A stretch of 42,503 nt of DNA from an uncultured Ignavibacteria bacterium (GTDB lineage Bacteria > Zixibacteria > MSB-5A5 > UBA10806 > 4484-95): contig CAZTNJ010000003.1 in assembly GCA_964614835.1 (NCBI GenBank), forward strand, positions 1-42,503, in the 5' to 3' direction. Below are positions 3,081-41,332 of this stretch, in pieces. Each line of letters starts with the position of its first letter. Within the stretch, counting starts at the first letter, position 1. A program made the translations under genes and the position numbers. The notes beneath the pieces are model-generated. The model worked only from the letters and a program-made list of their open reading frames with translations, had not been told where the DNA came from and ran no database searches.

Positions 3081-3139
3081 AAAACATTCCTCCAAAATTA
3101 TTGTTTATAATTTTCTCGATCATTTCATTATCAATAATC

Positions 3140-11007: not shown

Positions 11008-11329
11008 CCAAACCAACTTTCATGAAATTCCATTAATTATCAGGTCCTTAAACTTTTACATCAACATCAGCGCCATTAAAACACATTTACACTCTACTGG
11101 CAATTAAATTTAATCTATGCTTACTCGTATAATCATATGGTTGTTATAAGTCAATAATTATAAGCACGATACGGCCAACATAACATTAATAATGATTTAT
11201 GTAATATGCTGGTCTAATGGCTCGAGCCAATCGGCCGGTTTCAAACTGCAACAACCCCGTCTAACAACTTAATATCCATTATGATACGATACTAAAAAAT
11301 TGACCAATCACCGCCGAATTCGAATAAAT

Positions 11330-13147
11330 ATGCGTCGGAGTTTAAAAATTTTGTCTATTGCCGCCGTAGTTTTGGTTGCCAGCATATTAGCCTATGGTCA
11401 GGGCTGGATGGCAGAAACGATAGTCAATACCGTCACCCATGGCAAACAAGCAAGCCGGGGTACAGATACGCCCTGGTCTTTGGCAATTGACAATGATGGC
11501 GGAGTTCATGTTGTCTGGGAAGATAGGCGAGCTGAAAATGTATTATCAATATACTATCGCGGCAAACCCCCTTCGCCGACCTGGGACAGTTGGGACGTCC
11601 AGGATATAAATATCTCCCCGATAGATTCTGTTAATTTAATCGGTCATCCCTCGATAGGAGCCCTTGAGAATGGCTCATTGATTTCGGTATTCGCTGAAGA
11701 GCGAATATTTGGCGGTGAACTTCTGGGTACGGTTTTGCCGATAGGTCTTTCATGTTGGTTGCCGCCGCAGTATATTTCGGTTCCCGGGGGTAATTCACTT
11801 AGTTTTAATTCGACCGGCTGGCAGACGACTATTGCCACCAACGGACATCGAGCCCTTACATTTTGGCCTTATATAGGTAACGAATTGGACGATTTTCGGC
11901 CGATATTTTTTCGAAAGTTTGACGATGGCGGGTGGCAGGGCGCCGAAATCCCGCTATCGCTTCCCGATGTCGGACTTCGTTATTACGCCAAAAACCTATC
12001 GGCAGTCTGGGCCAGACAGGACACCATCTATTTAGTATTTGCCTGTATGCCGGAAAACCGCTCTATCTATCAAATCGATTTTGTTAAGATTAATTTTAAC
12101 GATGATTACATTTCAGATTTTCAAGTTATCGCCATAGATTCGCTTATCAGCCAGGAGTTCCCTTACATATGCCGCCAGCTTGATAAAAACGGCCTTGAAA
12201 ATATTTATATTGCATATGATAATCATGGCTTAAACGAATCGGCCAAAATGATACATCTTTCGGAAGCATCAGGAATCTGGTCTTCCTCGATTACGCTTGG
12301 AGATACGCTAATATCCAGCGGATATCCCTGTGTTGCCGCCAATCCTTCCGGAGCGATTGAGCTTGCTTTCGAACAACCCGGTAACGAGCCTAACAGCCAA
12401 ATATATCATCAAACCTTTTATCCGGAATCGAATACTCTTGGCGCGCCGGTTAGGATATCCGAAGGGGAGTATTTTTCAAAACGGCCGGTTATTGCCTGTG
12501 ATAAATTTGGCAATACTCATATTATCTATATCAGTAATAGGGTCCATCCCTGGGATCCCGGAAACGAGGAAGTATTTTATCGGATGTTTGACGCGCCGCC
12601 GCTCTGTCCGGCCAATGTGACAGTCAGAGAGGATACAATTCGCTGGGAGTACAATGATCCGCCCGATTTGCGTTATTTCCAAATATTTGCGATTATCAAT
12701 AACGATACGGCACTTATCGGTGGCACTCTCAATCATTTTTTCCGGCACAACCTGGGGACTAATACCTTGATAGGCGTTCGGGCGGTGGATATAAACTGGC
12801 AATCATCCCCCGTGGCAATGGCCGATCTAATTAGCGGTGTTATTGACGAATCTGAAAAATTTCTCGGTAATTACGAAATCGGGCCCAATTACCCCAATCC
12901 GTTTAATTCTTATACTTCGATCTCGTTGGTGGGAAATCCAATCGAAAGCGGCGAGGATAATCTTGAGATATTTGATATTCTTGGCCGAGTTGTTAAATCG
13001 ATTAAAATTTCCACATCGTGTAATAGCGTCATTTGGGATGGTACCAATCAAGAAGAGATACCGGTAGTTTCAGGAGTATATTTTTACAGGCTACACAATC
13101 GGCTGGGATTGGGAAGCCCTATCCACAAGATGATTTTAATCAGGTAA
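11330..13147 (+). CDS. T9SS-sorted secreted protein with repeated beta-propeller-like blades (function unknown)
   Basis: Signal peptide MRRSLKILSIAAVVLVASILAYG. Recurrent blade-like segments (GGVHVVWEDRR, DTIYLVFACM, ENIYIAYDNHG, GNTHIIYISNR). C-terminal T9SS sorting domain NYPNPFNSYTSISL..LEIFDILGRVVKSI..VIWDGTN..VSGVYFYRL. Confidence 0.85.
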   Translation: MRRSLKILSIAAVVLVASILAYGQGWMAETIVNTVTHGKQASRGTDTPWSLAIDNDGGVHVVWEDRRAENVLSIYYRGKPPSPTWDSWDVQDINISPIDSVNLIGHPSIGALENGSLISVFAEERIFGGELLGTVLPIGLSCWLPPQYISVPGGNSLSFNSTGWQTTIATNGHRALTFWPYIGNELDDFRPIFFRKFDDGGWQGAEIPLSLPDVGLRYYAKNLSAVWARQDTIYLVFACMPENRSIYQIDFVKINFNDDYISDFQVIAIDSLISQEFPYICRQLDKNGLENIYIAYDNHGLNESAKMIHLSEASGIWSSSITLGDTLISSGYPCVAANPSGAIELAFEQPGNEPNSQIYHQTFYPESNTLGAPVRISEGEYFSKRPVIACDKFGNTHIIYISNRVHPWDPGNEEVFYRMFDAPPLCPANVTVREDTIRWEYNDPPDLRYFQIFAIINNDTALIGGTLNHFFRHNLGTNTLIGVRAVDINWQSSPVAMADLISGVIDESEKFLGNYEIGPNYPNPFNSYTSISLVGNPIESGEDNLEIFDILGRVVKSIKISTSCNSVIWDGTNQEEIPVVSGVYFYRLHNRLGLGSPIHKMILIR

Positions 13148-16192: not shown

Positions 16193-17965
16193 TTATCTGG
16201 ATCGGTTGGTGTCTTTCGGGCCTGGCTTCAACATCGGCGGCGGAAACAGATAACAATAATCTATCCAGGATATCCCTTTAAAATACGAAATAAGCCGGGT
16301 AATATCGGATCCCCTGTATTCGCAATCTCCATTAACATCGCCTGCAACATATAGATAACCATTGCCGGGAAGACTACTATCGCTGCAGGAGTCCGGCGGC
16401 GGTAATCCGATACCCTTAAAATAGCGGACCCCATAGATAGCATCCCCGCCTATAAGTACTCCATCGCCATTCATATCGCCGGGTATGTATGTGCAGGGAG
16501 ACGGGCCCGCCGTGCCGCGCGGGGAATTAGACAGCGCCGATATATTCAAATTTTTATCGGTAGCTTTAAGGGCGAAATAATATCCGTTTCCATAGGTCAA
16601 ACCAGATACAAGCAATGTCTCGGCCGAACCTCCCGTTTTCGGTGCGTTTTCATTGGTCAATTGCGTGGCGGCATTCCACCGAGCGGTAGTATTAATCGCG
16701 CCGGAGGCCTCCGGGCAATATCTGATATCATAATATGCGTTCTGTCCGGATGCGCCATCATCGCCGGGGGCAGTCCAAATCAGTCTTATCTGATTCAATC
16801 CCGGTCCGCCAACACAGCGAAGATCGGTTACGGTGCCTGGCAGTACATGATCGGACGTGTCCTCATCCATCGGAAAGTATCGGGGTAGGCCAATTGCCGC
16901 TCGCTCATCGGGCCCCCCATGCAAGCGGCCGCTACCCGATACTAAAAATAATTGCTGGCCATTGGTTTTTATAACGATATCGCCGACACAGTAGCCGTTA
17001 TAGCTTCTATAAGTATTAGGCGTTCCTGTTCCCTCTTCTGTTTGAAGCACAATTGACGGGGGCGCCGTTACGCAAGCCGGAGTCCCGCTTAGGAAAACAT
17101 TGTCAATTACATCGATACGCGGGAAATCCCAGCCCGCCGCCTGACCCGTACCGACATTTACACAGGCGATGCGCGGTGTCAGATAATTCGCCCAATCGTG
17201 ATTACCTGAGCCTTCGCTGCCGTGATGGCCGATATGGGCGACTTCGACGCCTATCGTCGCACTCAGCAAATTTGCACCTGTGGGCGAGCAGAGCGACTGT
17301 ACTATAGGGGTTTCCACATTGGCGTAGTTGGTAGCGGTATGACGGCCGGTGCACCACTCGTCATCATCGCCGCCGCCAAGGTCAGAGCTATAAATATAAG
17401 CAAATTTACCATATTTAATCAGCATAACAACGCTCTTATCGTTCTCTTCAGATACGGACACTGAACCACCGCCAAGTATATTCCCATGTACCGCGACACA
17501 GGTGGCGGTGGCGCCATTTCCAAGCTGAATTACTGTACCCAGTGGCATTGGCTGGGCAGGTCCCGCCGTAGTTGTTGCAGCTGCATTAAAAAAAGCGGTG
17601 ACATATGAATTTGACTTCGTGCTACCATTGTAATAGACCCTGTTGGTCACGTCATAACCGGCATAAATAACTTCATCGAAACCGGCAAAATGATCCGTAT
17701 CTAAATGACAAGCAATTATATATGATATAGCATCGCTGGTCGTAATTCCAATTGATTGAAGATATGGAATTATATCGCTTGTGCCATCGCCGTTATCCCC
17801 GCCATCCATCAAGATAATTGTGCCATTAGGACCTATAACCATGGCGCTTCCAGCGGTTTGCACATTGATATAATGAATTTCCAGCAAACCCGAAGGGGTA
17901 AATCCATAGGCAACCGAACCAACCCAAATAATCAGGATTGCTACTGCCTGTATGAATTTAGCCAT
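16193..17965 (-). CDS. Secreted metallo-beta-lactamase-fold protein with FN3-like domain and C-terminal dockerin-type repeats
   Basis: Signal peptide. MBL motif IIACHLDTDHFAG after ILMDGGDNG. FN3-like segment PGTVTDLRCVGG..IRLIWTAPGDDG. Two dockerin/EF-hand-like repeats, GDMNGDGVLIGGDAIYGVRYFKG and GDVNGDCEYRGSDITRLISYFKG. Confidence 0.85.
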   Translation of the reverse strand: MAKFIQAVAILIIWVGSVAYGFTPSGLLEIHYINVQTAGSAMVIGPNGTIILMDGGDNGDGTSDIIPYLQSIGITTSDAISYIIACHLDTDHFAGFDEVIYAGYDVTNRVYYNGSTKSNSYVTAFFNAAATTTAGPAQPMPLGTVIQLGNGATATCVAVHGNILGGGSVSVSEENDKSVVMLIKYGKFAYIYSSDLGGGDDDEWCTGRHTATNYANVETPIVQSLCSPTGANLLSATIGVEVAHIGHHGSEGSGNHDWANYLTPRIACVNVGTGQAAGWDFPRIDVIDNVFLSGTPACVTAPPSIVLQTEEGTGTPNTYRSYNGYCVGDIVIKTNGQQLFLVSGSGRLHGGPDERAAIGLPRYFPMDEDTSDHVLPGTVTDLRCVGGPGLNQIRLIWTAPGDDGASGQNAYYDIRYCPEASGAINTTARWNAATQLTNENAPKTGGSAETLLVSGLTYGNGYYFALKATDKNLNISALSNSPRGTAGPSPCTYIPGDMNGDGVLIGGDAIYGVRYFKGIGLPPPDSCSDSSLPGNGYLYVAGDVNGDCEYRGSDITRLISYFKGISWIDYCYLFPPPMLKPGPKDTNRSR

Positions 17966-18110: not shown

Positions 18111-18935
18111 TTATTGGCCGATAAACGGTCCGAACATAAAATTAGTCAACAGGTTATCAAGTTTGTCGGCAGTTTTTTTCAAATTACAGTAATGGCGAAA
18201 TGTGTTTCCAAAACCAGCCCCTTTTACACGTGGCTGTTCGGGATCGAATTCCCAGGGGTGAAGGTATACTATCACCGGCCTATTCTCGGCGTTTACCTTT
18301 CGGATATTTCGCCTGATAAAAAAATCAGGATATAAACGAAAATAACCGCCTCCCCCCGCCGGGATTCGTCTGCCCAGAAAAACAACCACTGTCATGGGAT
18401 ATTCTTTTATGATGGCCTTGCCATTTTCAACAATATCAAATGGCGCGAGTGGAACAGAAACGGCATCGCCATAGCGAAAATGCTTCATGGGGAAGAGCGA
18501 TGAATCGTAGGTTATTCCGAAATCGGCCAATATCTGGAACTTCTCGATATCCTTGGCCGAAAGCGAAAAGCTTGGAGCACGGAAGCCCTTAACTTTTATT
18601 CCCGTTATTCCCTCAATGATATCCAGCGATTTTTTAACATCAACAGCGAATTCATCTGGTGTCATATCATATATCAGTTTGTGTTCGTAGCCGTGGCTGG
18701 CGATTTCATGTTTGGCGGCGCTGATTTTTTTGAGCATTGATTGATGCCGTTCAGCAATCCATCCTAAAATAAAAAAAGTAGCCTTAACTTGATGCCGGTC
18801 AAGGATTGCTAAAATCGTATCGGTATTTTTCTCAACCCTCGATAAGTGCCTATCCCAATCTTTTCGGTTGATAGCCGCCGCAAGACCAGAGACCTGAAAA
18901 TGCTCTTCGATGTCAAAACTAAGAATATTTCTCAT
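18111..18935 (-). CDS. Polysaccharide deacetylase (NodB fold plus DUF3473), PEP-CTERM/XrtA-locus-type subfamily
   Basis: NILSFDIEEHFQVS, VKATFFILGWIAERH, HEIASHGYEH (metal His motif), GFRAPSFS, PAGGGGYFRLYP, YLHPWEFDPEQPR, FRHYCNL. Confidence 0.9.
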   Translation of the reverse strand: MRNILSFDIEEHFQVSGLAAAINRKDWDRHLSRVEKNTDTILAILDRHQVKATFFILGWIAERHQSMLKKISAAKHEIASHGYEHKLIYDMTPDEFAVDVKKSLDIIEGITGIKVKGFRAPSFSLSAKDIEKFQILADFGITYDSSLFPMKHFRYGDAVSVPLAPFDIVENGKAIIKEYPMTVVVFLGRRIPAGGGGYFRLYPDFFIRRNIRKVNAENRPVIVYLHPWEFDPEQPRVKGAGFGNTFRHYCNLKKTADKLDNLLTNFMFGPFIGQ

Positions 18936-19012
18936 TTTTATTGACTGGCACTTGGCGCCAAGATAATTCGATGTGTGTCGTTTCTTGGCGTAATCAATTT
19001 GGAAATTCGCAT

Positions 19013-19036
19013 AGGGGCGTAAAGCAATACGCCCCT
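19013..19036 (-). terminator. Hairpin between the NadE-like and deacetylase genes
   Basis: AGGGGCGTA-aagcaa-TACGCCCCT, a 9-bp stem 10 nt after the stop at 19046. There is no T-run, so it may only attenuate. Confidence 0.4.
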
Positions 19037-19045
19037 ACCGTGATA

Positions 19046-20014
19046 TTATAGTTTAAACTCTGAAGGTTCGGCGCGCAGATATTCGGTGGTGCGTTTTTTC
19101 TGGTCAAGATCGCGCCAGACATTCTGCACCTGTTCTTCAGTTAAATTCATTACTTTAGCGGTTTCGGCAATCGATACGTGATGTTCTTTGGCGTACCAGA
19201 GCAAATCCATAATTTTAAATTTAAGCCCATAGAAAAACTCTTCTTGAGTTTGCTCATCAGGATATGTATCTGTAGTCGGGGTTCGGTCCAGAATTCCCTT
19301 CGGCACTCCAAGGTACGCGCCCAATTGGAATACCTGCGTTTTAAACAGATGGGCAATCGGTTTGCAATCAGCGCCGCCATCGCCGTATTTAACGAAAAAT
19401 CCCTGATCGTGTTCGTTTTTATTGCCGGTTCCGATAACCGCGTAATTTAATTTTTCGGCATGATAGTAAAGTGTAAGCATCCTGATACGCTGCTTCATAT
19501 TCGAAGCCGCAACTATTTGAAGATATTCGGCAATAGGCAACCGCTTGGATATTGGTTCACCCCCGGGGGGAGTCGCGGTTAAACGGAATATGTTGAGCCT
19601 GTTTGACTCCATCAGGTTGGTCGGAAGCACGATTTTGGCTTTCCAGCCGGGGCCGTATTCGGGAAAAACTTTTCGGAACGCCTCGTCGCGGCGAGTATAA
19701 CAACCCATTCCTTCAAGCCCCTTACTGATGTCTTCGATGATATATTTGTAGCCATACGTTTTAGCCAATTCGATACCGAGCTTACTCGAATCGCCGGATG
19801 AATCCTTATCGGGCAAAAGTACGCCGAGCATTTTTTCGGGGCCAAATGCTCTGGCGCAGAGAGCCGCCACGACAGCCGAGTCTATCCCGCCGGAAGTCCC
19901 TACCACCGCGCCTGAACGCCGAAACCGGACATACACTTCATGGCGAAGAAATTCGACCAATTGATCGACAACTTTGGGACAATCGAGATTTAATATATCA
20001 GTGGAAAAAGCCAT
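19046..20014 (-). CDS. nadE: NAD+ synthetase-family PP-loop ATP-pyrophosphatase (NH3-dependent type, no glutaminase domain)
   Basis: PP-loop GTSGGIDSAV. NadE-like core AVIGTGNKNEHDQGFFVKYGDGGADCKPIAHLFKTQV and C-terminus TDTYPDEQTQEE..GL.F..MD. Its start overlaps the ligase stop as TAATG. Confidence 0.85.
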   Translation of the reverse strand: MAFSTDILNLDCPKVVDQLVEFLRHEVYVRFRRSGAVVGTSGGIDSAVVAALCARAFGPEKMLGVLLPDKDSSGDSSKLGIELAKTYGYKYIIEDISKGLEGMGCYTRRDEAFRKVFPEYGPGWKAKIVLPTNLMESNRLNIFRLTATPPGGEPISKRLPIAEYLQIVAASNMKQRIRMLTLYYHAEKLNYAVIGTGNKNEHDQGFFVKYGDGGADCKPIAHLFKTQVFQLGAYLGVPKGILDRTPTTDTYPDEQTQEEFFYGLKFKIMDLLWYAKEHHVSIAETAKVMNLTEEQVQNVWRDLDQKKRTTEYLRAEPSEFKL

Positions 20015-21552
20015 TACGACCTCGCTTTCTGTTTGTGCTGTTCGACCAATTCGAACTTCTTTATTTTTCCCGATGTGGTTTTAGGCAATGCCTCAATATC
20101 GATTATTTCGCCGGGGATTTTAAATGGCGCGAGATTGAGTCGAAGATGTTTCCGTAATTCCTTATGATCGATCTTTTCCTTTGTAACCAGGTACGCCACC
20201 AGCGCTTCTCCCAATATCTCGTCGGGAACGCCAATTACAGCCGATTCGACAACTCCTGGGAATTCGGCGATTACTTCTTCAATTTCTTTGGGGGAAATTC
20301 TATGGGCGCCGCTTTTTATCATATCGGAACTGCGGCTGACTACGAAAATATAACCATCTTCATCAACCGTGGCCAAATCTCCGGTGTGAAGCCCATCCGC
20401 TTTAAGGACTTTTTCAGTGGCTTCGGGATTATTCCAGTAGCCAACCATAATATTATCGCCTTGCGCCACAATTTCGCCGACCTCACCGGGTTTGCAGGGT
20501 TGACCGTTTTCATCGCGAACGGTCAGGGTGACCCCCGGAATAGCGCGACCGATAGAGCCGATTTTTTCCAACAGCCGTTCCGGTTCCAGATAAGACAGCC
20601 GCGCCGAGGCTTCCGTCTGGCCGTACATGATATAGATTTTCAGATGCGGCATCGCCTCCATGATTTTCTGGGTCAAAGCCGGAGTCATTGGGCCGCCGGC
20701 CTGGGTGATATAGCGTAAATGTTCGAAACGGTAGTTGCGGATATTAGATTTGTGCATCAGGATAGCGAAAGTCGATGGCACTCCCGAAAAGCCGGTAACC
20801 CGCTCCTGCGACATGATTTCTAAAATTACATTTGGATATGCGAAACGATTGTCGATTACAACGCTTCCGCCGCAGCACATGTGGGTTAATAGAAGTGAAT
20901 TGCCATAGGAATAGTAAAATGGCAAAATCGCCATCACCCGGTCTTCCGGTTTCAGTTCAAGGTACTTGACAATCGATGTCGTATTAGCGTGGAGATTTTT
21001 ATGCGAGAGCGTCACGCCCTTGGGTTTGCCCGTCGTTCCCGACGTATAAATTATTTGGGCGATATCTTCCTCTTTACGGCTAACATGAGGCCTACCGGGA
21101 TCGCCTTTTAACTGGATGTCGAGCCAGAACTTCTTTTCAATGTCTTTTGGGTAATGCTCGTATTGGCCATCGGAGATGATAAATTTCAGCGATGGAATAT
21201 CCTGGTAGATTTCTTTAACCACGCCCGCTGAATTTTTATTTAGAATCAAACCCGTTACCTCGCAATCGCCGAGAATATTGCGGAAATCGCGGATCGTTCC
21301 CTGGGAATTCAGACCAACGACAACGCCGCCCGCTTTAAGAATCGCGAAATAGGCGATAATGTAATTTATCGATGATTCCAATAAAAGCCCAACCCGATCG
21401 CCGGGCTTTAACTTGAAATCAAGCAATTGATTGGCCAGACGATTGATTCCCGCCTCTAGCTCAAGGTAGTTTATCCTGCCGCCAAGGTGAATGGCGGCGT
21501 CCTTATAAGGAAATCGTTCGGCATTCTGTTCCACGTATTCATGCAGAAGCAT
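20014..21552 (-). CDS. Adenylate-forming (ANL) ligase, DltA / acyl-CoA-ligase-like
   Basis: IIYTSGTTGKPKGV, YGQTEA, GDLATVDEDGYIFVVSRSSDMIKSG and a C-terminal TTSGKIKK motif. 512 aa. Confidence 0.9.
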   Translation of the reverse strand: MLLHEYVEQNAERFPYKDAAIHLGGRINYLELEAGINRLANQLLDFKLKPGDRVGLLLESSINYIIAYFAILKAGGVVVGLNSQGTIRDFRNILGDCEVTGLILNKNSAGVVKEIYQDIPSLKFIISDGQYEHYPKDIEKKFWLDIQLKGDPGRPHVSRKEEDIAQIIYTSGTTGKPKGVTLSHKNLHANTTSIVKYLELKPEDRVMAILPFYYSYGNSLLLTHMCCGGSVVIDNRFAYPNVILEIMSQERVTGFSGVPSTFAILMHKSNIRNYRFEHLRYITQAGGPMTPALTQKIMEAMPHLKIYIMYGQTEASARLSYLEPERLLEKIGSIGRAIPGVTLTVRDENGQPCKPGEVGEIVAQGDNIMVGYWNNPEATEKVLKADGLHTGDLATVDEDGYIFVVSRSSDMIKSGAHRISPKEIEEVIAEFPGVVESAVIGVPDEILGEALVAYLVTKEKIDHKELRKHLRLNLAPFKIPGEIIDIEALPKTTSGKIKKFELVEQHKQKARS

Positions 21553-21567
21553 AATTATCCTATCGAT

Positions 21568-21816
21568 TTACTTATTGAGTTTCCTTGTCACATAAGCGGT
21601 AAGACTCTGAACCGAATCAAGGTTTTTCGGAACCAGTTCATCGTCTTCGACAGTAATTCCAAACGTTTGTTCGATAAAACCGACCAATTCCAGTACGCCG
21701 GTCGAATCGATAATACCCTTATCAAGCAACGAGGCGTCGTCGGTTAATTCATCGGGCGCCCTGCCGAGCATGAAGTTATCGATTATAAATTCCCTGAATT
21801 GTTTCGCGATATCCAA
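21568..21816 (-). CDS. Acyl/peptidyl carrier protein (DltC-like)
   Basis: 82 aa with the phosphopantetheine site LLDKGIIDSTGVLELVGFIE. TTG start preceded by GGAGG. Lies 15 nt upstream of the ligase gene. Confidence 0.85.
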   Translation of the reverse strand: MDIAKQFREFIIDNFMLGRAPDELTDDASLLDKGIIDSTGVLELVGFIEQTFGITVEDDELVPKNLDSVQSLTAYVTRKLNK

Positions 21817-21843
21817 TTGGCCTCCAACTTCAATAATTAACTT

Positions 21844-23169
21844 CTATAGTATCGGTAAATAATTTTCCAGTTCATAACCGGTGATTGTTATCCGATACTT
21901 ATCCCATTCAACCTTTTTATTTTCGATAAGCTGATTAAAAACGTGCTCTCCCAGAGTCTTTTTCATCAACTCGGATTTCTCGAATTCTCTAATAGCGTTT
22001 TCGAGCGAACCGGGCAGGGTGTCGATATTATGCTTTCTGCGCTCGGCTTCGTTCATCTCAAAAATGTTCTCTTCGATCGGGTCGCCCAGTTTCAATCCTT
22101 TCTTAATGCCATCGTAACCGGAGGCGATCATTACCGCGAAAGCCAGATACGGATTGCAGGCAGGATCCGGGCTTCTTAATTCGACACGGGTGGCATTTTC
22201 TTTGCCGACACGGTACATCGGGATACGAACCAATGATGACCGGTTGCGCCTTCCCCATGATATATATACAGGAGCTTCATATCCCGGCACAAGTCTTTTA
22301 TATGAATTCACCCACTGGTTGGTAACCAGGCAGAATTCTTTGACATGGCCCAACAGCCCGGCAACATAACTCTTGGCTGTAGCCGACAAGTTATATTCGT
22401 CGTTTTTCTCATAGAAAGCGTTTTTGCCGTCCTTAAACAGCGATTGATGAACGTGCATTCCCGAACCGTTTTCGCCAAATATCGGTTTGGGCATGAAACT
22501 GGCATAAAACCCTTCTGCCAGCGCGATCTCTTTTACCACCAGACGATAAATCATCGCCGCATCCGCCATCTTAAGGGCTTCTTGATATTTCAGGTCGATT
22601 TCCTGTTGCGATGGGGCGACCTCGTGATGCGAACATTCTACTTGAATTCCCATATCTTCAAGCGCCGAGGCTGTTTTCTTGCGCATCTTGGTGGCGGCAT
22701 CGACTGTCGAATAGTCGAAATATCCGCCCCGATCGATTATCTGGGGATTTTCGCTGTTTTTGAAATAGAAATATTCCATTTCCGGGCCCAGATAAGCTTT
22801 AAATCCATCCTTGGCGATTTCTTTTAATTGTCTTTTAAGGATATAACGCGAATCGCCCTCATAAGGCTCGCCATGGGGAGTATAGATATCGCAGAAAATT
22901 ACGGCCACCCTCTCATCCCCCAGCTCCCATGGAATAATCGTAAATGTTTCGAGATCAGGTTTGGCCTCCAAATCAGATTCTTCAATTCGGACAAATCCCT
23001 CAATCGAAGAACCATCAAAACCCTGACCGTGCTCTAAAACCTCCGCGATTTCCGAACGGGTTATCGTCATCCCCTTCAGCCGACCGAGGATATCTGAAAA
23101 CCATAAACGGATATAATTTACTTTGTTTTTGTCAAGCAATTCAAGTACTTCTTCTTTGGTGCGTGCCAT
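21844..23169 (-). CDS. glnA: Glutamine synthetase, type I (short GSI-alpha form, 441 aa)
   Basis: DGSSIEGF, GPEMEYFYF, CSHHEVAPSQQEIDLKY, ENGSGMHVHQSL, NRSSLVRIP. AAGGAG lies 6 nt before the ATG. Confidence 0.95.
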   Translation of the reverse strand: MARTKEEVLELLDKNKVNYIRLWFSDILGRLKGMTITRSEIAEVLEHGQGFDGSSIEGFVRIEESDLEAKPDLETFTIIPWELGDERVAVIFCDIYTPHGEPYEGDSRYILKRQLKEIAKDGFKAYLGPEMEYFYFKNSENPQIIDRGGYFDYSTVDAATKMRKKTASALEDMGIQVECSHHEVAPSQQEIDLKYQEALKMADAAMIYRLVVKEIALAEGFYASFMPKPIFGENGSGMHVHQSLFKDGKNAFYEKNDEYNLSATAKSYVAGLLGHVKEFCLVTNQWVNSYKRLVPGYEAPVYISWGRRNRSSLVRIPMYRVGKENATRVELRSPDPACNPYLAFAVMIASGYDGIKKGLKLGDPIEENIFEMNEAERRKHNIDTLPGSLENAIREFEKSELMKKTLGEHVFNQLIENKKVEWDKYRITITGYELENYLPIL

Positions 23170-23312
23170 TTATTTCTCCTTACTTTAAAATATCCCGATT
23201 ATTCTTATTTATTATCGGCATCCATTGTTAAAAGTTTTTTACAAAATTCTCAAAATGGCTGAATTTTATTTCGGCCCTCTTTAATGTCTATTTGTGTCAG
23301 ATTTGTATAAAA

Positions 23313-24275
23313 TTAAATATACTGTTGGTGCCAGCCAATGGCACGCTGCAACCCGTCGCTTAGCGAAACCTTGGTTTGAAAGCCGAATAACGAATTCGCC
23401 TTTCGCAAGTCGGGCACCCGACGCCGGACATCCTCGTAACCGCCGCCAAAACTTTCGTAGGCGACATATTCAATCTTCGACCTCGACTCGGTCATTTGGA
23501 TTATTCTTTTCGCCAACTCGATAATGGAGATCTCTTCGGCAGACCCGATATTGATTATCTGCCCATTTGCCCGTTCCGATTCAAGCGCCAGCGCGATTCC
23601 TTCCACGGTATCGCTGATATAACAAAAGCTCCGGGTTTGCTCACCATCGCCGTGAACCGTGATTGGTAAATTTCTCAGCGCTTGTTCGATAAACACCGCT
23701 TGTGGCCCTCCCCACCAGGAACGGTGGTTCCCCGGGCCATAACTTCCAAAAAACCGCAAAACCGCTACCGGAAGTTCCCGTTCACTATGATACGATAATG
23801 CCAGATGTTCATCGAATACTTTAGAGGCCGCATAAGCCCACCTTCTTACCGTAGATTGCCCCAATACCAAATCGCTGGTTTCTGAAAACGGGGGACAGGG
23901 GTTTTTACCGTAAACATCTGAGGTTGATGCGATTACGGTCTTAAGCTTTAAGCCGGATGCGACCTCTAAGACAATTCTGGTGCCATCGTTATTAACCGTA
24001 AGTGTTTTTAAGGCATCGCCATAACGAGGGATTTTATAGGCGGCGAGGTGAACCAGGAAATTTGCATTCAGACAGGCTTTTTCCACGATACCCGGCGTAC
24101 GAATATCAGCATATATGAATTCGAATTTTCGATTTTGTTCGATTTCTTTGATGTTATTTTTATTGCCGTGGGAAAGATCATCGATAATTGTTACATCCCA
24201 GGCGCGGTTAATGTAATATTTGGCCAAATTTGAGCCGATAAAACCGGCTCCGCCCGTTATAACTACTTTTGGCAT
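23313..24275 (-). CDS. NAD-dependent sugar-nucleotide epimerase/dehydratase (extended SDR)
   Basis: VVITGGAGFIGSNL and catalytic YAASKVFDE. Its start overlaps the wecB stop as TAATG. Confidence 0.9.
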   Translation of the reverse strand: MPKVVITGGAGFIGSNLAKYYINRAWDVTIIDDLSHGNKNNIKEIEQNRKFEFIYADIRTPGIVEKACLNANFLVHLAAYKIPRYGDALKTLTVNNDGTRIVLEVASGLKLKTVIASTSDVYGKNPCPPFSETSDLVLGQSTVRRWAYAASKVFDEHLALSYHSERELPVAVLRFFGSYGPGNHRSWWGGPQAVFIEQALRNLPITVHGDGEQTRSFCYISDTVEGIALALESERANGQIINIGSAEEISIIELAKRIIQMTESRSKIEYVAYESFGGGYEDVRRRVPDLRKANSLFGFQTKVSLSDGLQRAIGWHQQYI

Positions 24276-25435
24276 TATTCGAAAAGGTTATTAGTTTTAA
24301 TCTTGCGCGTGCCCGGTTCAACCTGGGTAAATGATTTGGCGATAACATCCGCGATACGGGTAGCAGTATTCCCATCCCAATATTTCGGAATGGCAGTTCC
24401 CCTTGTCTTATTGGCAATAATCATCTCGGCAGTGGCGGTTATTTTTTCCGGGAATGGCCCCACGATTATATTGGTGCCTTCCTTAACGGTCACGATCCAC
24501 TCGGTATTTTTTCTGATAGTCAGGCAGGGGATACCCAGAGCGCTTGATTCGACTTGCATCGTTCCCGAATCGGTCATCAGCAAAGCAGCCCCTTTTTCGA
24601 GGGCCAGAAAATCGGGATACTTTGATAAATCGTATAGAATTAGACTGCGCTCATCGAAATTGCCCAATAAGCCGAATTTTTGGATATCTTCCTTTACCCT
24701 GGGATAGCAGACAAATACCACCGGTATTGTTCTGGCGATCTGGCGGGCCGCCGAAATTATCCCCTTTAGATTTTCGAAATGAGTGGTATTGGTCCGTCGG
24801 TGAAGCGACAACAACGCGTAGCCGCTTGGTACCAGCCCCAAAGATTCCGGGGTTCGCGACTTATTGGCCAGAGGCATGAATTTGTTCATGGCATCTATCA
24901 TTATGTTGCCGACAAAGAACACGTTCTCATCATTATTGCCTTCAGCCTTGATATTGGTATGAGCGTTGCAATCGGTTACGAAAAATATATCGCTGATGCT
25001 ATCGACCATTTTGCGATTTATATCAGTGCTGGACACATTCCCCGGGCATCGTAAACCGGCTTCGATGTGGGCAATCTTAATTCCATTTCGGGCGGCCGAA
25101 ATAGCCGTTCCGAGCGCCGCATCGGAGCCGCCACTTACTACAATCATGTCGGGTTTTAATTCGGAAAAGCATTTATCGGCCTCGATGATAGTCTGGGAGG
25201 TACATTCAGGATGCGCCCCGTTTTTAACGTTTAAATAAATTTGAGGTTTGGGCAATTTTAACTCGTCGAACAGATAAGCGGCATCCGCCCTTGAAAAAGG
25301 ACTGCCAGTATAAAGTACAATCGGTTCGAGAAAATCATAGTAGCGGGCAAAATTGTCGATTAAGGGAGAAATCTTAATCAGGTTTTTATTCGAGTTTACA
25401 ACAACTACGATTTTTTTTAATCCGCCCGAGTACAA
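24275..25435 (-). CDS. wecB: UDP-N-acetylglucosamine 2-epimerase family protein
   Basis: Family layout seen by eye: ..KPDMIVVSGGSDAALGTAISAARNGIKIAHIEAGLR.., ..LLSLHRRTN.., ..ALLMTDSGTMQVESSALGIPCLTIRKNTEW... 386 aa. Confidence 0.88.
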   Translation of the reverse strand: MYSGGLKKIVVVVNSNKNLIKISPLIDNFARYYDFLEPIVLYTGSPFSRADAAYLFDELKLPKPQIYLNVKNGAHPECTSQTIIEADKCFSELKPDMIVVSGGSDAALGTAISAARNGIKIAHIEAGLRCPGNVSSTDINRKMVDSISDIFFVTDCNAHTNIKAEGNNDENVFFVGNIMIDAMNKFMPLANKSRTPESLGLVPSGYALLSLHRRTNTTHFENLKGIISAARQIARTIPVVFVCYPRVKEDIQKFGLLGNFDERSLILYDLSKYPDFLALEKGAALLMTDSGTMQVESSALGIPCLTIRKNTEWIVTVKEGTNIIVGPFPEKITATAEMIIANKTRGTAIPKYWDGNTATRIADVIAKSFTQVEPGTRKIKTNNLFE

Positions 25436-25520
25436 TTGTGTCTCTCCTCTATCGATTATTGTCGGCGTAATTGACGGTTATTATAATCATTTAATCAATA
25501 TTCGCAAATCTAAAAAAAAC

Positions 25521-26423
25521 CTATTTTGTGGCGTTCTTAAGTTGAGCCATAATCCGTGGGATTTTTATAAAGTCGAATTCAAGTAAAAGCCGCGTTAATT
25601 TAAACTCGGCCCAGGTAAGGTTGCCGTAATTTTTTATATTGCTTATTGGATTCGTAACCTGGCGGGGGATATGGCGGTCAAATTCCCAAAGAGGGAAATT
25701 TAATACCGCGGGGATATTTTTGCGGTCGAATTCCCGAAGACATCGCCGTAAAAACCAGAGTGGAAACAACCTGATCTTCCCTGATTGCCCAAACTCCATT
25801 TTAATCCCGGCCAAATTACTTTTGCTTGGAGAAAAGATGGTGATATCGGAACCATCCTCAAACGAGACATTAAAAATATTGCCATCCGACCTTATCCTCT
25901 TGGGGAGCACATCGACCAAGCAATAACGATACCCCGCAGATGCCAATTTCTGAAGATATTGGGGCATCCCGCCGGGATTTCCCTTAAACATCGCCCCTAA
26001 AAAATGATTATCTGTGATTAACGCCAACTCATCTTTCAATTCTGTCAGATTGCTCTGGCATTTTCCACTGGTAAAGTCCAGGCAGATTCCGATTTCGTGT
26101 CCCCGCGAACTTACCAGCGATACCACTTCCGGGAAATCTTTTAACAAATCGGGTGTGATATAGAAATTCGTTTCAACCCTATGTTTATCAACGTGATCCA
26201 GCAAGTGAAGGATATTTGGAATCGCCCGAGAGCGGGCTCGCCCATTTGTTTGGCTGGGAAGAAAATCGTTTATTTCAACGGCCAGAATATGGGCATTCAC
26301 CTTTATTTCGCAAGGAAAGTAGCTTATTTCGCCCAGATTGTAGCCTATATTTTTTATTACTCTGTTGCTCATATTTTTACAACCACTTATCTTTTCCGGA
26401 AATTGCTCAATCAATATAATCAA
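25521..26423 (-). CDS. Divergent paralog of the DUF3473/NodB deacetylase, with catalytic motifs degenerate
   Basis: Aligns by eye to 18111-18935: ILAVEINDF vs ILSFDIEEHF, GHEIGICLDF vs KHEIASHGYEH, KIRLFPLWFLRRCLREF vs YFRLYPDFFIRRNIRKV, FPLWEFDRHIPR vs LHPWEFDPEQPR, IKNYGNL vs FRHYCNL. An alternative start exists at 26372 (MSNRV). Confidence 0.75.
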   Translation of the reverse strand: MIILIEQFPEKISGCKNMSNRVIKNIGYNLGEISYFPCEIKVNAHILAVEINDFLPSQTNGRARSRAIPNILHLLDHVDKHRVETNFYITPDLLKDFPEVVSLVSSRGHEIGICLDFTSGKCQSNLTELKDELALITDNHFLGAMFKGNPGGMPQYLQKLASAGYRYCLVDVLPKRIRSDGNIFNVSFEDGSDITIFSPSKSNLAGIKMEFGQSGKIRLFPLWFLRRCLREFDRKNIPAVLNFPLWEFDRHIPRQVTNPISNIKNYGNLTWAEFKLTRLLLEFDFIKIPRIMAQLKNATK

Positions 26424-28692: not shown

Positions 28693-31600
28693 CTACGCGT
28701 TAACCTTAACCACTGTATCGGCCCCGCTTGGTTTAGACGATATTTTGGCCAGGGCTCCAAGAACGCCCTCTTTGATATAGGGTTTGTAGATAACCCCATT
28801 TGCTTGTCCGATGTATTCTTCAAATTCATGCCTGATCGGTCCAACACATGATAATAATATTGCGGTCTCCGGAAAGTTTTTCTTGAGATAATCGATTGTT
28901 TTAGCAAAATCCATCAAACCCGGATGGCTGGCATCTAATATAACCAGGTCGCTGTCGAACATCTCGCCCTTGGCGATTAGTTCTTCTCCCCATTGCAGGA
29001 TTTCGCATCGGGCGCCGAGTTTTTTAAATATTTCCGCTAAATCATCCGAGTACTTCCGATAAAAATCAATGATTGTAACGCGTTCGAAGTTTTTAATTAT
29101 TGTTTTTTGAGCGCCATATATCGAATGCCCCAGACTTATCGGCAGCAAAACCGTAAACTCGGTGCCGATTCCCTCGATGCTTTTGACATGAATTTTCCCG
29201 CCATGATTTTCAACAATATTATTGCTGATAGAAAGACCAAGTCCTGTGCCCTTGGCTTTTTCCGGACCCCAGACTCCCTTGGTACTATAAAACGGATCGA
29301 ATATTTTACCGAGGTTTTCCTTACTAATACCGATTCCGTTATCGGATATTTCTACATAAGCATTCTCGATATCGTGCCAGACGCTAATCGAGATAATGCC
29401 GTTTTCGGCGACAGCATGGATCGCGTTGATTAATATGTTGAGAAACACCTGCTGAAGCTGATTAGGCGAACCATAAATTAAAGGCGTATCATTATAATTG
29501 GTAATCAGGTGGATATTTTTATTCTTCAGTTCTTTGTTAATCAACCTGACAATATCCTTAAGGATTTGGGTGAGATTGACTTCTCCCATGCCCTCGCTGC
29601 CTTTGCGGCCGGAATATGAAAGAAGTGATTGAACCAATTCGGTTGCCTGATCCGCCGCCCTGACGGCATCGTCAAGCCCCTTCTTGAACAGCTCATTGTC
29701 ATGGCTGTTGTTTTGCACCAGCGACAAATTACCGACAATACCGCAGAGCAAATTATTGAATTCGTGGGCAACACCGGCCGCTAAAACCCCGATGGCCGCC
29801 ATTTTTTCCGATTGGATCACCTGCTCTTCGAGCCGTTTTTTCTCGGTTATATCAATGCTTACTCCATCGATACGCTTTATTGCGCCGGAACTATCAAGAC
29901 CGGGTGATATTAACATTGATACAGTTTTCAATGAACCGTCGCGATGGATTATTTTTATTTCCATCGAGACTGGCGCTTTGGTCCGCATAAGTTCTTTAAT
30001 TGATATCATTAACTGCGCCATTGATTCTTGAGTCGCTAATTCTCTGGGCAATAACGGATTATTCATCAATTCGTCCGCAGTATAACCAGTTAACCCCTCT
30101 ACCGTGGGACTGACCAGCAATAGTTTATCGCTTTTAACATCGAAACTCCAGATCGTGACTGGGGCCGTTTCGATCAAGTTGCGGTATTTTTCCTCGGAGG
30201 CCCGGATTATTTCTTCGGACAATTTACTTTCGGTGATGTCCCGGATACTTTCAATCGCGCCGACAATATTGCCCCGTGAGTCGCGGAGCGGTGTGGCCAC
30301 GCCCCTAAGATATACCTCTCGTCCCGCCAGAGAATCGATATAGGCTTCCGCGCAAATCATCTCATCCTGTTTGGTAATTGAGCTGTAATTGCGCGTTAAC
30401 ACATCCGAAGGCAGGAGGACGAGATCGATCAATATCGGGCGTTTTTTACCATAGAACGGCAGGGCGTATTCATAATCCCCTTTTCCGACAATATCGCAGG
30501 CGGCAACGCCGGTCATCTTTTCCATCGCTCGGTTCCATGCGATAACGACGCCATTTTTATCGATAACAAATGTGGCATCCGGCAGGAAATTGATTACATT
30601 GGCAAGTAGGCGCTCCGATTCGGCCAGGGCCTCTCTTGCCTGCTTCTCTTCGGTAATATCGTAATAAGAACCCAGTATCCCGATTACCTGGCCAGCGGTA
30701 TCCATCAGAGGTGTTTTATTAATTCTAATAACCCGTTTGCGCCCATCGGGCAACGTCAGCGGTTCTTCATAGTCTAATTTGGGGGCGCCCGTTTCGATTA
30801 CCAGGCGGTCGTCGGCATGATATTGATCGGCATGATCTTTCCAGCTCAACTCCGAATCGCTTTTGCCGACTACTTCCGATATCGAATTTAATCCCGTATC
30901 TTCGGCAAAGGCCCGGTTGCAGCCGAGATATTTCATATTAGTGTCTTTCCAGAAAACCCTCACTGGAATATTATCTAAAACTGTCCGGAGAATCTGGCGG
31001 GATTCACGCAGTTCTTTTTCGATATTTTTCCGGTCGGTTACATCGCTGGCAAATATCAGGCTGGCGGGTTTCCCTTCCCAAGAAATCTTTACTGCATTTA
31101 CTTCAAGCCATTTAATTTGTTGATTCCGGCAAATTATCCGCAATTTATAATTGCTCGTTAATGGTAAACCTTCCGGGCGATTCCGATGCCTATGTAAAAA
31201 CGTCTCGCGGTCATCCTGATAGATGTAATCGATGATGGGTTTTTCGATTAATTCCGACAACTCGCATCCGATTAGTTCGGCGCCTTTTACATTTGAAAAT
31301 TTAATTACGTCACCCTGAGCGACCAGGATAGCTTCATTCGCGTTTTCTATCAAAATTCGATACTTTTCTTCGGAGGCCCGAAGTTTTTCCTCTATCCGTT
31401 TCTTGTCCGTAATGTCTCTTAAGACATTAAATAAGATATTCCTGCCCTTGTAAGGTATAACGCTTAGTGCGACATCAACTACGATCAGCTCCCCGGCGGC
31501 GTTAAATCGGGTCCATTCAAAACGATGACCGCCGTTTTCGATCGCCAGCTGTATCATCTTCTGCTCCACCTCGCTTGATAATTGGCCATCGGGCTGATAT

Positions 31601-32277
31601 TTCGGCGCATATTGAGCCGGGTGTTGGCCTAATAAAGTTGCTTTATCCGCGAAACCAAGTAGCTTCAGCGCGGCTTCATTGCAATCAATATATACGCCAT
31701 TATCAATGAGCAGAATCGGGTCGGCCGACCTATAAAACAGCTGTTTGAATCTGCTTTCATCTTTTAGACTTTCAATCTCCGGTCCTGCTAAATCTTCAGA
31801 ATCTTCCAGTACCAGCGCGATTCGCGAAACGATGCCTTTCTTGAGATAGGTTGCTTTTCCTTTTAAACGGCAGGTCGTGATTAGTCCATCGCCCCTTCGT
31901 ATTTCGGTAATCAGTTTGTCCGGGGATGGATTTGAATCGAACTGCGCCAGGAATAATTTAAACTGGTTTTGGTATCCCGAAACCAGAATGTCGATAAATT
32001 TAGTACCTATAATCTGGGATTTTTTAAACTTGAGCGATTCAAGCCAGGATAGATTGGCGTCAAGGACGAAACCGTTATCATCAATTAAGCAGCAGGGGAT
32101 AGGTATACTCTCAAAGTTCAACTCATTTACCAAGTTGCCATCGCCAAATTGCGACTTGTAGGCATTGCGCTTTTTCGAAAAAAGATAAACTATAATTGCC
32201 GCGAGCAAAAGCGCGCCTGTTATTATCATCCCTATAACAAGATATTCTCGAGATATGTAAAATGAATCAATATTCAT
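28693..32277 (-). CDS. Multi-PAS hybrid sensor histidine kinase (1194 aa) with C-terminal receiver-like domain
   Basis: One N-terminal TM helix. Repeated PAS/PAC units (several ..DITE/DKK.. boundaries). HisKA AGVAHEFNNLL, HATPase N-box FLNILINAIHA and G-box GTGLGLS. Tail with DLVILDASHPG, ILLSCVG and IYKPY, which resemble REC motifs. Confidence 0.93.
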   Translation of the reverse strand: MNIDSFYISREYLVIGMIITGALLLAAIIVYLFSKKRNAYKSQFGDGNLVNELNFESIPIPCCLIDDNGFVLDANLSWLESLKFKKSQIIGTKFIDILVSGYQNQFKLFLAQFDSNPSPDKLITEIRRGDGLITTCRLKGKATYLKKGIVSRIALVLEDSEDLAGPEIESLKDESRFKQLFYRSADPILLIDNGVYIDCNEAALKLLGFADKATLLGQHPAQYAPKYQPDGQLSSEVEQKMIQLAIENGGHRFEWTRFNAAGELIVVDVALSVIPYKGRNILFNVLRDITDKKRIEEKLRASEEKYRILIENANEAILVAQGDVIKFSNVKGAELIGCELSELIEKPIIDYIYQDDRETFLHRHRNRPEGLPLTSNYKLRIICRNQQIKWLEVNAVKISWEGKPASLIFASDVTDRKNIEKELRESRQILRTVLDNIPVRVFWKDTNMKYLGCNRAFAEDTGLNSISEVVGKSDSELSWKDHADQYHADDRLVIETGAPKLDYEEPLTLPDGRKRVIRINKTPLMDTAGQVIGILGSYYDITEEKQAREALAESERLLANVINFLPDATFVIDKNGVVIAWNRAMEKMTGVAACDIVGKGDYEYALPFYGKKRPILIDLVLLPSDVLTRNYSSITKQDEMICAEAYIDSLAGREVYLRGVATPLRDSRGNIVGAIESIRDITESKLSEEIIRASEEKYRNLIETAPVTIWSFDVKSDKLLLVSPTVEGLTGYTADELMNNPLLPRELATQESMAQLMISIKELMRTKAPVSMEIKIIHRDGSLKTVSMLISPGLDSSGAIKRIDGVSIDITEKKRLEEQVIQSEKMAAIGVLAAGVAHEFNNLLCGIVGNLSLVQNNSHDNELFKKGLDDAVRAADQATELVQSLLSYSGRKGSEGMGEVNLTQILKDIVRLINKELKNKNIHLITNYNDTPLIYGSPNQLQQVFLNILINAIHAVAENGIISISVWHDIENAYVEISDNGIGISKENLGKIFDPFYSTKGVWGPEKAKGTGLGLSISNNIVENHGGKIHVKSIEGIGTEFTVLLPISLGHSIYGAQKTIIKNFERVTIIDFYRKYSDDLAEIFKKLGARCEILQWGEELIAKGEMFDSDLVILDASHPGLMDFAKTIDYLKKNFPETAILLSCVGPIRHEFEEYIGQANGVIYKPYIKEGVLGALAKISSKPSGADTVVKVNA

Positions 32278-33636: not shown

Positions 33637-33871
33637 GCGGGTCAATATCGCAATCTTAGGATGCGTTGTCCATCAGTTTATATCGATGCTGTGCGATTTT
33701 TGCACTTTTATTCTCGTAACATGGATTTTGATTGTGGGGCTGAAAATCCTGTGTTTCGGGACAGTAAAAAAATTCTAGTGTTTCTAAATTAAATATCGAA
33801 AAACTTCTGACGAAATAACAAATAGGTATTCGTCGCTGACTTCGACCGGAACCATAATGGGTGGAGGAGCT

Positions 33872-36798: not shown

Positions 36799-36809
36799 TT
36801 TTTCCGCCG

Positions 36810-41322: not shown

Positions 41323-41332
41323 GGGTTGGGAA

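Follow-up and report, generated by a model that had tools for sequence, protein, structure and literature searches.

The closest characterised analogue of the pathway discussed here is the Wbp/Vim pathway of Porphyromonas gingivalis and Tannerella forsythia, a likeness of logic and not of membership in one system. In that pathway VimE, a CE4 deacetylase, exposes the 2-amino group on a di-N-acetyl uronic sugar, an acyl or aminoacyl group is put back at N-2, the AsnB-type enzyme WbpS carries out a uronamide step and a WecB-family epimerase yields the manno form; the finished linking sugar is the acceptor to which the type IX secretion (T9SS) sortase attaches its cargo (PMC7468200). Veith et al. 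2020 speculated that exosortase systems use an analogous compound (PMC7468200). We analysed a stretch of 42,503 nucleotides from an uncultured bacterium that the names of close homologs assign to the Zixibacteria (contig CAZTNJ010000003.1; the whole stretch is called the window below), in which eight genes at 18111-26423 combine sugar-modifying enzymes and a glutamine synthetase with a trio comprising an acyl carrier protein (ACP), an ANL adenylate-forming ligase and a NadE-like protein. Judged from comparisons with related genomes, this locus is a composite of a five-gene block found throughout the Zixibacteria and an inserted remnant, devoid of AsnB, of a four-gene ACP/ANL/AsnB/NadE-like cassette. 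For its function we lean, if narrowly, towards an acyl-carrier-dependent N-acylation and an amidation of a de-N-acetylated (uronic) amino sugar.

The cassette itself is already known as an operon of Sinorhizobium meliloti. On pSymB it comprises asnB and genes for an ACP, an adenylate-forming ligase and nadE, with a stop-start overlap of the ligase and nadE genes as in the window. SMb20650 is cotranscribed with the carrier protein SMb20651, and co-expression in Escherichia coli gave acylated SMb20651, while SMb20650 cannot replace FadD (PMC7232532). The window proteins are 51% (carrier protein), 33% (ligase) and 46% (NadE-like) identical to the pSymB proteins. The best NCBIfam models of the carrier proteins and of the NadE-like proteins are the same for window and pSymB, and TIGR03098, the exosortase-A ligase model, is the top match of the pSymB ligase and the second-best of the window ligase. 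We take the pSymB locus compared here (L094) to be the smb20650/51 operon on the basis of its published description. Ramos-Vega and co-workers are said to have described the four-gene operon in 2009, and the acyl species were reportedly C12:0 and C18:0. The two copies differ in their surroundings. The pSymB operon stands alone near minCDE and has asnB, whereas the window copy is without AsnB and lies between glnA and the CE4 deacetylase of a sugar block. The genes of the window locus, read along the minus strand, are as follows.

25521-26423, minus strand: degenerate CE4/DUF3473 paralog, first gene of the block (Pfam DUF3473 only)
24275-25435, minus strand: nucleotide-sugar 2-epimerase of the WecB/WbpI family (Epimerase_2, 241 bits)
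23313-24275, minus strand: extended short-chain dehydrogenase/reductase (SDR) on a nucleotide sugar (Pfam Epimerase and GDP_Man_Dehyd)
21844-23169, minus strand: type I glutamine synthetase, glnA (Gln-synt_N and Gln-synt_C)
21568-21816, minus strand: type II acyl/peptidyl carrier protein of 82 amino acids (aa) (PP-binding, DS motif)
20014-21552, minus strand: ANL adenylate-forming ligase (AMP-binding and AMP-binding_C)
19046-20014, minus strand: putative NadE-like single-domain PP-loop amidoligase of the PRK00876 subfamily (NAD_synthase)
18111-18935, minus strand: CE4 polysaccharide/sugar N-deacetylase of the XrtA-associated DUF3473 type, with which the block ends (Polysacc_deac_1 and DUF3473)

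The list of open reading frames (ORFs) contained all eight on the minus strand at 18111-26423, and Pfam and NCBIfam scans agreed with the families to which a preliminary description of this DNA had assigned them. That description had set them apart as a group of eight co-directional genes. The common direction is correct, but the run continues past 18111 with a further minus-strand gene at 16193-17965, and the eight did not hold up as one evolutionary unit, because the five-gene block occurs without the trio in three related loci. In two of these (L090 and L091; 72-74% identity in GlnA) a YegS gene on the minus strand is followed by the DUF3473-only paralog, wecB, the SDR gene, glnA and the deacetylase gene, and the block region has no carrier protein, ligase or NadE-like gene. 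The flanks are those of the window, i.e. YegS, DUF5683, FMN reductase and a sigma-54 regulator. The third case is the complete genome CP070742.1, where the SDR gene, glnA and the deacetylase gene lie together (L089) and the cassette (L002) is found about 1.1 Mb away beside the exosortase genes EpsH/EpsI. In the window and in L006 and L009 the trio sits exactly between glnA and the deacetylase gene, and AsnB is absent; in L008, L018, L015 and L037 glnA is flanked by AsnB upstream and by ACP(-ANL)-NadE-like downstream. In L008 (4763-6752) AsnB is split into two overlapping ORFs of 511 and 170 aa, which is either a frameshift or a decay toward the AsnB-less state of the window.

Neighbour-joining trees placed the window NadE-like protein as sister to the exosortase-linked copies of L007, L011 and L013, while the other glnA-linked clade was nearest to the exosortase-linked set of L001, L002 and L024. 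Thus the cassette has moved more than once between the exosortase locus and the glnA/deacetylase block, and from these repeated moves we argue that it works with either home alike. For the window itself the result is more modest: a conserved block has received a copy of the cassette that is lineage-specific and without AsnB.

The linkage of the cassette genes was assessed in 80 genome loci with NadE-like relatives of at least 54% identity, drawn from Zixibacteria, Ignavibacteria, Calditrichota, Acidobacteriota, Chloroflexota, Planctomycetota, Bacteroidota, Gammaproteobacteria, Methylomirabilota and Thermodesulfobacteriota, by searching their six-frame ORFs with the window proteins. Unbiased ORF clustering of the neighbours was cluttered by overlapping frames, so that only clusters of long ORFs were interpreted. 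We call a locus fully flanked if at least 5 kb were available on both sides of the NadE-like gene (n = 45). In 42 of these 45 loci, which come from about ten phyla, the NadE-like gene had ACP, ANL and/or AsnB no more than 6.5 kb away, and about 97% of the cassette partners were on the same strand. The order ACP, ANL, AsnB, NadE-like was the commonest (20 loci); more than 20 other permutations kept the genes together, and linkage across such shuffled orders was seen in Zixibacteria, Chloroflexota, Ignavibacteria, Calditrichota, Acidobacteriota, Planctomycetota, Bacteroidota and Gammaproteobacteria. Because the linkage survives the shuffling of gene order, we regard the cassette as a functional unit. 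The carrier protein adjoins the NadE-like gene in 53 of 83 loci, and a glutamine-dependent AsnB of about 660 aa is present in 47 of the 83. Scans of the window ORFs found no Asn_synthase; the window trio itself shows the linkage, with the NadE-like gene adjacent to and co-directional with those of a stand-alone ACP and an ANL ligase. One locus (L016) gave a tblastn match in which the NadE-like ORF was not intact.

A tblastn search of PLSDB detected the NadE-like protein at 46-53% identity on 116 alphaproteobacterial plasmids and chromids, the hosts being Sinorhizobium, Ensifer, Mesorhizobium, Shinella and Azospirillum. In Azospirillum thermophilum a polysaccharide locus contains, in a row, GT2, GT4, GT4, deacetylase, ACP, ANL, asnB, nadE and GNAT genes. 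The four-gene cassette on a plasmid of Mesorhizobium sp. AR07 (L092, 721-4204) has IS66 and IS481 transposases at a distance of a few kb, and this neighbourhood of insertion sequences (IS) is consistent with mobility. The preliminary description had named an adjacency unique to this genome as something that would refute it, but the ACP, ligase and NadE-like genes travel together over about ten phyla and on the rhizobial plasmids. It had also considered that glnA and nadE might be ordinary housekeeping copies. This probably applies to glnA, which looks ordinary, but not to the NadE-like gene because of its co-travelling with the other two.

The housekeeping explanation nevertheless has a claim on the NadE-like protein. 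It holds that the protein is a genuine NH3-dependent NAD+ synthetase and glnA an ordinary gene, both placed here by accident or, in the case of the former, for NAD regeneration in the pathway. The NadE-like protein scored 452 with NF002048/PRK00876 (cut-off 313) and 172 with TIGR00552 (cut-off 63.65). It has in common with true NadE the motifs SGGxDS, N172/R176/R178 and FFVKYGDGG, and these shared motifs, SGGIDS included, are invariant; it resembles the NH3-dependent NadE in the PP-loop fold and in being a single domain without glutaminase. Its closest structure is the NadE of P. horikoshii (2e18), and all of its top matches, in sequence as in fold, belong to the NadE family. NAD synthetase activity is therefore conceivable, given the motifs and the NCBI cut-offs passed. 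Strong conservation (54-60% identity across phyla, and only 350 clusters at 50% identity in an exhaustive search of 1.84 billion protein representatives at E <= 1e-30) is what a universal substrate would lead one to expect, and a preprint remarks that NAD synthetase genes flank some carrier-protein amidation clusters (10.1101/2024.10.28.620694). The terminal amidation domain of the same preprint was tried as a match and rejected, as it has an unrelated AAR-like fold. GlnA, for its part, passes TIGR00653 and keeps its place in relatives without the trio.

On the other side stand the cassette partners near 42 of 45 NadE-like genes in shuffled orders, the plasmid carriage near IS elements and several features of the protein itself. 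The subfamily has a conserved, beta-stranded insertion of about 65 residues that is absent from every solved NadE; in the AlphaFold2 model (pLDDT 85) the insertion, at about residues 117-160, forms three beta strands. There are two fusion proteins, a full-length one of 849 aa that joins an ANL (AMP-binding) ligase and NadE-like (P0247) and one of 479 aa that joins NadE-like and a 4'-phosphopantetheinyl transferase (PPTase; P0245). Two nearly identical copies lie about 400 kb apart on a single 1.9-Mb contig of one Zixibacterial metagenome-assembled genome (L037 and L039; CAWDFP010000006.1), and some single loci contain two paralogs. Substrate shifts do occur in the NadE family, as the NMN synthetase of Francisella (3fiu), one of the fold neighbours of our protein, tells us. 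The genomic context speaks against a role that is purely housekeeping, and we consider the housekeeping explanation quite improbable. The survey of the NadE family by De Ingeniis 2012 (PMC3376133) does not mention the subfamily or its context. Other apparent fusions of NadE-like with GATase or PP-binding domains may be merged gene calls; the NAD_synthase+GATase proteins P0269 and P0348, as well as P0251, possibly arose in this way on fragments and were not relied on.

The carrier protein starts with TTG, preceded by GGAGG, and a gap of 15 bp separates its gene from that of the ligase in the window order ACP, ANL, NadE-like. The ligase is probably the acyl-carrier-protein synthetase for this adjacent carrier protein. 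The preliminary description had called the latter DltC-like, a label that we dropped: DltC was a weak match (21.6 bits), the window ORFs include neither DltB (MBOAT) nor DltD, and the ligase has FYYS where amino-acid adenylation domains carry FDxS. From the FYYS motif we conclude that a canonical alpha-amino acid is an unlikely substrate. Across 51 ligase orthologs no residue, Asp included, was conserved at the FDxS position. An aminoacyl reading of the carrier/ligase pair was rejected together with the Dlt-like one.

Carrier-protein/ligase pairs are found within other glycan and lipid A loci, such as rfbK/rfbL for tetronate N-acylation in Vibrio cholerae O1, DltA/DltC and AlmE/AlmF. As in the window, these systems encode a stand-alone carrier protein together with an adenylate-forming ligase dedicated to it, and the two provide an unusual acyl substituent. 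In contrast to Dlt and Alm, the window is without DltB/DltD or an AlmG-like transferase, and its ligase is without the Asp that binds the alpha-amino group; in contrast to the O1 rfb genes, it is without reductase/dehydrogenase partners as in rfbM/N. To our knowledge none of these systems has a NadE-like or AsnB partner.

The best solved relative of the carrier protein is a stand-alone peptidyl carrier protein (PCP), 2my5, and it resembles the type II PCPs PigG and PltL of natural-product pathways. The top solved relative of the ligase is an adenylation domain of a nonribosomal peptide synthetase, followed by malonyl-CoA synthetase MatB, MenE and oxalate-CoA ligases. These matches would suit a thiotemplated pathway for a diffusible amide metabolite that is unrelated to the envelope and whose sugar neighbours are coincidental, and so would the solitary position of the cassette on rhizobial plasmids. 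AsnB homologs form amides or lactams in secondary metabolism, e.g. OxyD and beta-lactam synthetase, which can be counted in the same direction. Yet the cassette has no condensation, ketosynthase, thioesterase or export gene, and its repeated association with polysaccharide and exosortase genes spans at least five phyla. A diffusible natural product is the least likely of the rival explanations, and in our judgement a very unlikely one.

A lipid product is a more serious alternative. Here the ligase would load a long-chain fatty acid for an N-acyl amino acid or aminolipid, and AsnB and the NadE-like enzyme would amidate the free carboxylates of that lipid, for instance to yield a membrane anchor that the exosortase system uses. 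The acylation of its carrier protein by the pSymB ligase in E. coli (PMC7232532) fits this idea, as does the best NCBIfam model of the window carrier protein, an ornithine-lipid ACP below cut-off. A link of N-acyl amino acid synthases with exosortase loci has been reported, as quoted in PMC11631085 (its reference 34). The window has, at 40141-42460 on the plus strand, a gene for a serine-palmitoyltransferase-like pyridoxal phosphate (PLP) enzyme (NF047600 582, cut-off 640), followed by one for a 375-residue protein with a weak GNAT match; these genes may serve sphingolipid or aminolipid synthesis. On the other hand, the usual neighbours of the cassette are glycosyltransferases, BY-kinase, deacetylases and sugar SDRs, not lipid enzymes, and no N-acyl amino acid synthase or OlsB-like gene adjoined the cassette in the loci examined. 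The solved relatives of the ligase include enzymes for small dicarboxylates (MatB, oxalate-CoA ligase). We rate a lipid product as unlikely, though to be taken seriously.

The polysaccharide neighbours count in favour of a sugar substrate. In other phyla the cassette was accompanied by genes for BY-kinase, a TIGR03087-like glycosyltransferase, a FemAB/VimA-like protein, GT2, hexapeptide acetyltransferase and acyltransferase_3. Polysaccharide genes are its usual neighbours, and FemAB-like genes were found near it in nine loci other than the window. Two loci of the Calditrichota (L027 and L038) have a deacetylase of the same DUF3473 type as in the window directly 5' of their NadE-like gene, with SDR, methyltransferase and GT2 genes thereafter.

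In the window the sugar is expected to be handled by the enzymes of the five-gene block. The epimerase fell just under the cut-off of the wecB model TIGR00236 (206.1, cut-off 210.15). Its best solved relatives were effectively tied, with 193.8 bits for 8syd, a UDP-2,3-diacetamido-2,3-dideoxy-glucuronic acid 2-epimerase, and 192.7 for 4neq, an archaeal UDP-GlcNAc 2-epimerase. The SDR came closest to UDP-glucuronic acid decarboxylases (4lk3, 146 bits), with the UDP-GlcA 4-epimerase 6zl6 at 123 bits, and reached no equivalog cut-off in the NCBIfam scan; its substrate is probably a uronic-acid nucleotide sugar. The matches of both enzymes point to a uronic-acid amino sugar, as leads and not as proofs. 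The deacetylase at 18111-18935, a member of a known family, passed TIGR03006 with 329.3 bits (cut-off 276.2); its gene is directly 3' of glnA in L090 and L091. The paralog at 25521-26423 is 26% identical to it, had no Polysacc_deac_1 match in the Pfam scan and reads SSRGHEI in place of ASHGYEH, so that both metal-binding His (the HxxxH ligands) are replaced. Its true start is probably the ATG at 26372, which gives 283 aa, the homologs having 266-287 aa. DUF3473-only orthologs hold the same position in L006, L090 and L091.

GlnA scored 523.6 with TIGR00653, above the equivalog cut-off of 429.15. Its orthologs (66-74% identity) lie between the SDR and deacetylase genes in L089, L090 and L091, none of which has the trio, and glnA is probably the ordinary glutamine synthetase of the organism in a synteny conserved throughout the phylum. 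The preliminary description had seen a glutamine synthetase embedded together with the NadE-like amidoligase. The gene is there, but it is an ordinary type I enzyme that belongs to the block and not to the cassette. The notion that the NadE-like enzyme replaces glnA-type chemistry was abandoned, since most relatives pair it with a glutamine-dependent AsnB, which has been lost in the window.

Compared with Wbp/Vim, the window has a CE4 deacetylase and an epimerase only; it is without WbpA/B/D/E and without a VimA-like (FemAB-like) transferase. The acyl donor in the window would be a carrier-protein thioester made by the ANL ligase, and amidation would be due to the NadE-like enzyme rather than, or besides, AsnB. 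The earlier suggestion of an amino sugar that is deacetylated and then re-acylated or amidated stays the best reading, and its analogue is experimentally characterised (PMC7468200). We propose the following sequence of events. The block would remodel or epimerise and then de-N-acetylate a nucleotide- or lipid-linked 2-acetamido (uronic) sugar. The ligase would adenylate a carboxylic acid and load it as a thioester on the dedicated carrier protein, as was shown for the S. meliloti ortholog, and the acyl-carrier protein would then donate this group to the amine that the deacetylase has freed. The NadE-like enzyme would adenylate a carboxylate and convert it to a carboxamide with ammonia, the carboxylate being the uronic acid of the sugar or a carboxyl that is free on the tethered acyl group; the glutamine-dependent AsnB would amidate as well in most relatives. 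The conserved position of glnA would couple the supply of the nitrogen donor to the pathway. The product would enter a surface polysaccharide or an anchor glycan made by genes elsewhere in the genome, which in relatives are exosortase-adjacent.

Several observations weigh against this proposal. Scans of the window, covering the 82-aa carrier protein and the 29 ORFs with a length of 150 aa or more and no overlap with a longer ORF, found no acyltransferase able to take the acyl group from the carrier protein, no UDP-sugar 6-dehydrogenase for making a uronic acid and no glycosyltransferase, flippase or exosortase. The last three absences had been noted before and were confirmed. As a consequence the remaining steps of the pathway would have to be encoded elsewhere in the genome. 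Motifs of true NadE are retained in the NadE-like protein, which also passes the NCBI cut-offs for NAD synthase. The synteny of glnA within one phylum is weak evidence of function, and a 143-bp gap with a promoter-like site precedes the gene. S. meliloti pSymB and the Mesorhizobium plasmids have the cassette without obvious polysaccharide genes. Finally, no product has been assigned to any member of the cassette; the function of SMb20651 'needs further investigation' (PMC5686131).

The preliminary description had likened the locus to the exosortase-A-associated gene sets, and this likeness is real. Beyond the deacetylase that passes TIGR03006, the second-best model of the window ligase is TIGR03098 (383.7, cut-off 592). 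In relatives a FemAB-like protein (TIGR03019) and a glycosyltransferase (TIGR03087) have XrtA models as their only or top match, and AsnB (TIGR03108) and BY-kinase match XrtA-associated models lower in the list. EpsH adjoins the cassette in six Zixibacterial loci (L001, L002, L007, L011, L013 and L024), in five of them together with EpsI; the EpsH of these relatives reached 188.5 with the XrtA model TIGR03109 (cut-off 208). The differences from the XrtA/PEP-CTERM set are that all members except the deacetylase are below the curated cut-offs, and that the window has no exosortase by the ORF scans and no PEP-CTERM protein by eye: visual inspection of the C-termini of 19 window ORFs showed no PEP motif with a transmembrane helix and a basic tail after it. 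In its classical form the XrtA ligase cassette contains a PLP decarboxylase and two hydrolases, not AsnB and a NadE-like protein. Candidates for PrsK and PrsR in the window also stayed below cut-off, the histidine kinase with 97.4 for TIGR02916 (cut-off 300) and the response regulator with 296.1 for TIGR02915 (cut-off 502.6). A large multi-PAS histidine kinase is encoded at 28693-32277 on the minus strand and a sigma-54 response regulator at 33857-35212 on the plus strand; L090 and L091 have a sigma-54 regulator in synteny with the block.

By analogy with the linking sugar of the Wbp/Vim pathway, a bolder proposal can be made. The cassette and the DUF3473 deacetylase/epimerase block might build the exosortase acceptor itself, an N-acylated and amidated amino-uronic sugar or glycolipid, with PRK00876 being a mis-annotated carboxylate amidoligase. 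We put this forward tentatively and think it rather unlikely. If it holds, the T9SS sortases of the phylum may use the compound as well. The window contains genes for a FadL/PorV-like outer-membrane protein (7785-9242, plus strand) and a protein with a T9SS C-terminal sorting domain (11300-13147, plus strand). A type IX secretion system is probably present in the organism, a point of relevance to the linking-sugar analogy.

Within the locus, TAATG stop/start overlaps were seen at 24275 (epimerase/SDR) and 20014 (ligase/NadE-like), as described before; overlaps of this type are commonplace in operons and not remarkable as such. Two intergenic features deserve mention.

23170-23312, minus strand: gap of 143 bp 5' of glnA, a possible internal transcript start with a putative promoter-like site at 23290-23263
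19013-19036, minus strand: GC-rich hairpin with an 11-bp stem in the 110-bp spacer between the NadE-like and deacetylase genes

The promoter-like site consists of TAGACA, 16 nt and TAAAAT and matched 10 of 12 positions in a consensus scan, the only analysis applied to it. A riboswitch or leader 5' of glnA was rejected, because an Rfam scan of the whole window at gathering thresholds gave only a tRNA. The hairpin reported earlier is real: its stem is as listed, and the whole spacer folds with -35.3 kcal/mol (z = -4.1). It was rejected as a canonical terminator or a conserved regulator, since a U-tract is missing and L009, a relative with 93% identity, does not conserve the spacer. In L006 the corresponding spacer has 28 bp only. 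The hairpin probably marks the insertion joint or stabilises the mRNA.

Immediately 3' of the deacetylase gene and co-directional with it, 16193-17965 on the minus strand encodes a metallo-beta-lactamase-fold protein of 590 residues, whose N-terminus is signal-peptide-like, whose C-terminus is dockerin-like (DVNGD...) and which has a metallo-beta-lactamase/ComEC-like region; it occupies the same position in L006. The archaeal-type genes gatD and gatE for a Glu-tRNA(Gln) amidotransferase were found in this bacterium at 35389-38720 on the minus strand (NF003217 523, cut-off 310, for gatD; NF003107 553, cut-off 456, for gatE). GatDE is usually regarded as archaeal. A 633-residue GatB_N protein is encoded near the glnA block of another Zixibacterium (L089). 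Near the start of the window are the tRNA gene (547-635, minus strand; Rfam, 58.7 bits) and a gene for a DUF3800 protein (2325-3095, minus strand).

We searched the literature for exosortase together with NAD synthase, ACP or asparagine synthase, and for PRK00876/NF002048, and found no description of the cassette. Within this searched literature no account was found of its breadth across phyla, of the ANL/NadE-like and NadE-like/PPTase fusions, of its occurrence in polysaccharide loci or, in the six Zixibacterial loci, beside exosortase genes, of its alternation between two homes in the Zixibacteria or of the AsnB-less insertion into the glnA block. The product of the four-gene unit is still to be identified 17 years after the first characterisation of the carrier protein. 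Cultured and genetically tractable carriers of the cassette exist in S. meliloti, Mesorhizobium and Azospirillum and allow a direct test of the hypothesis. That a family labelled NAD(+) synthase is the near-obligate partner of a carrier protein, a ligase and AsnB calls the annotation into question, and the family is probably mis-annotated. On the bolder proposal made above, the PRK00876 'NAD synthase' family would be an amidoligase for carboxylates of sugars or acyl groups, wrongly annotated in thousands of genomes. With its presence in polysaccharide loci and its alternation between exosortase locus and glnA/deacetylase block in the Zixibacteria, the cassette thus bears on the question of what exosortases attach their substrates to.

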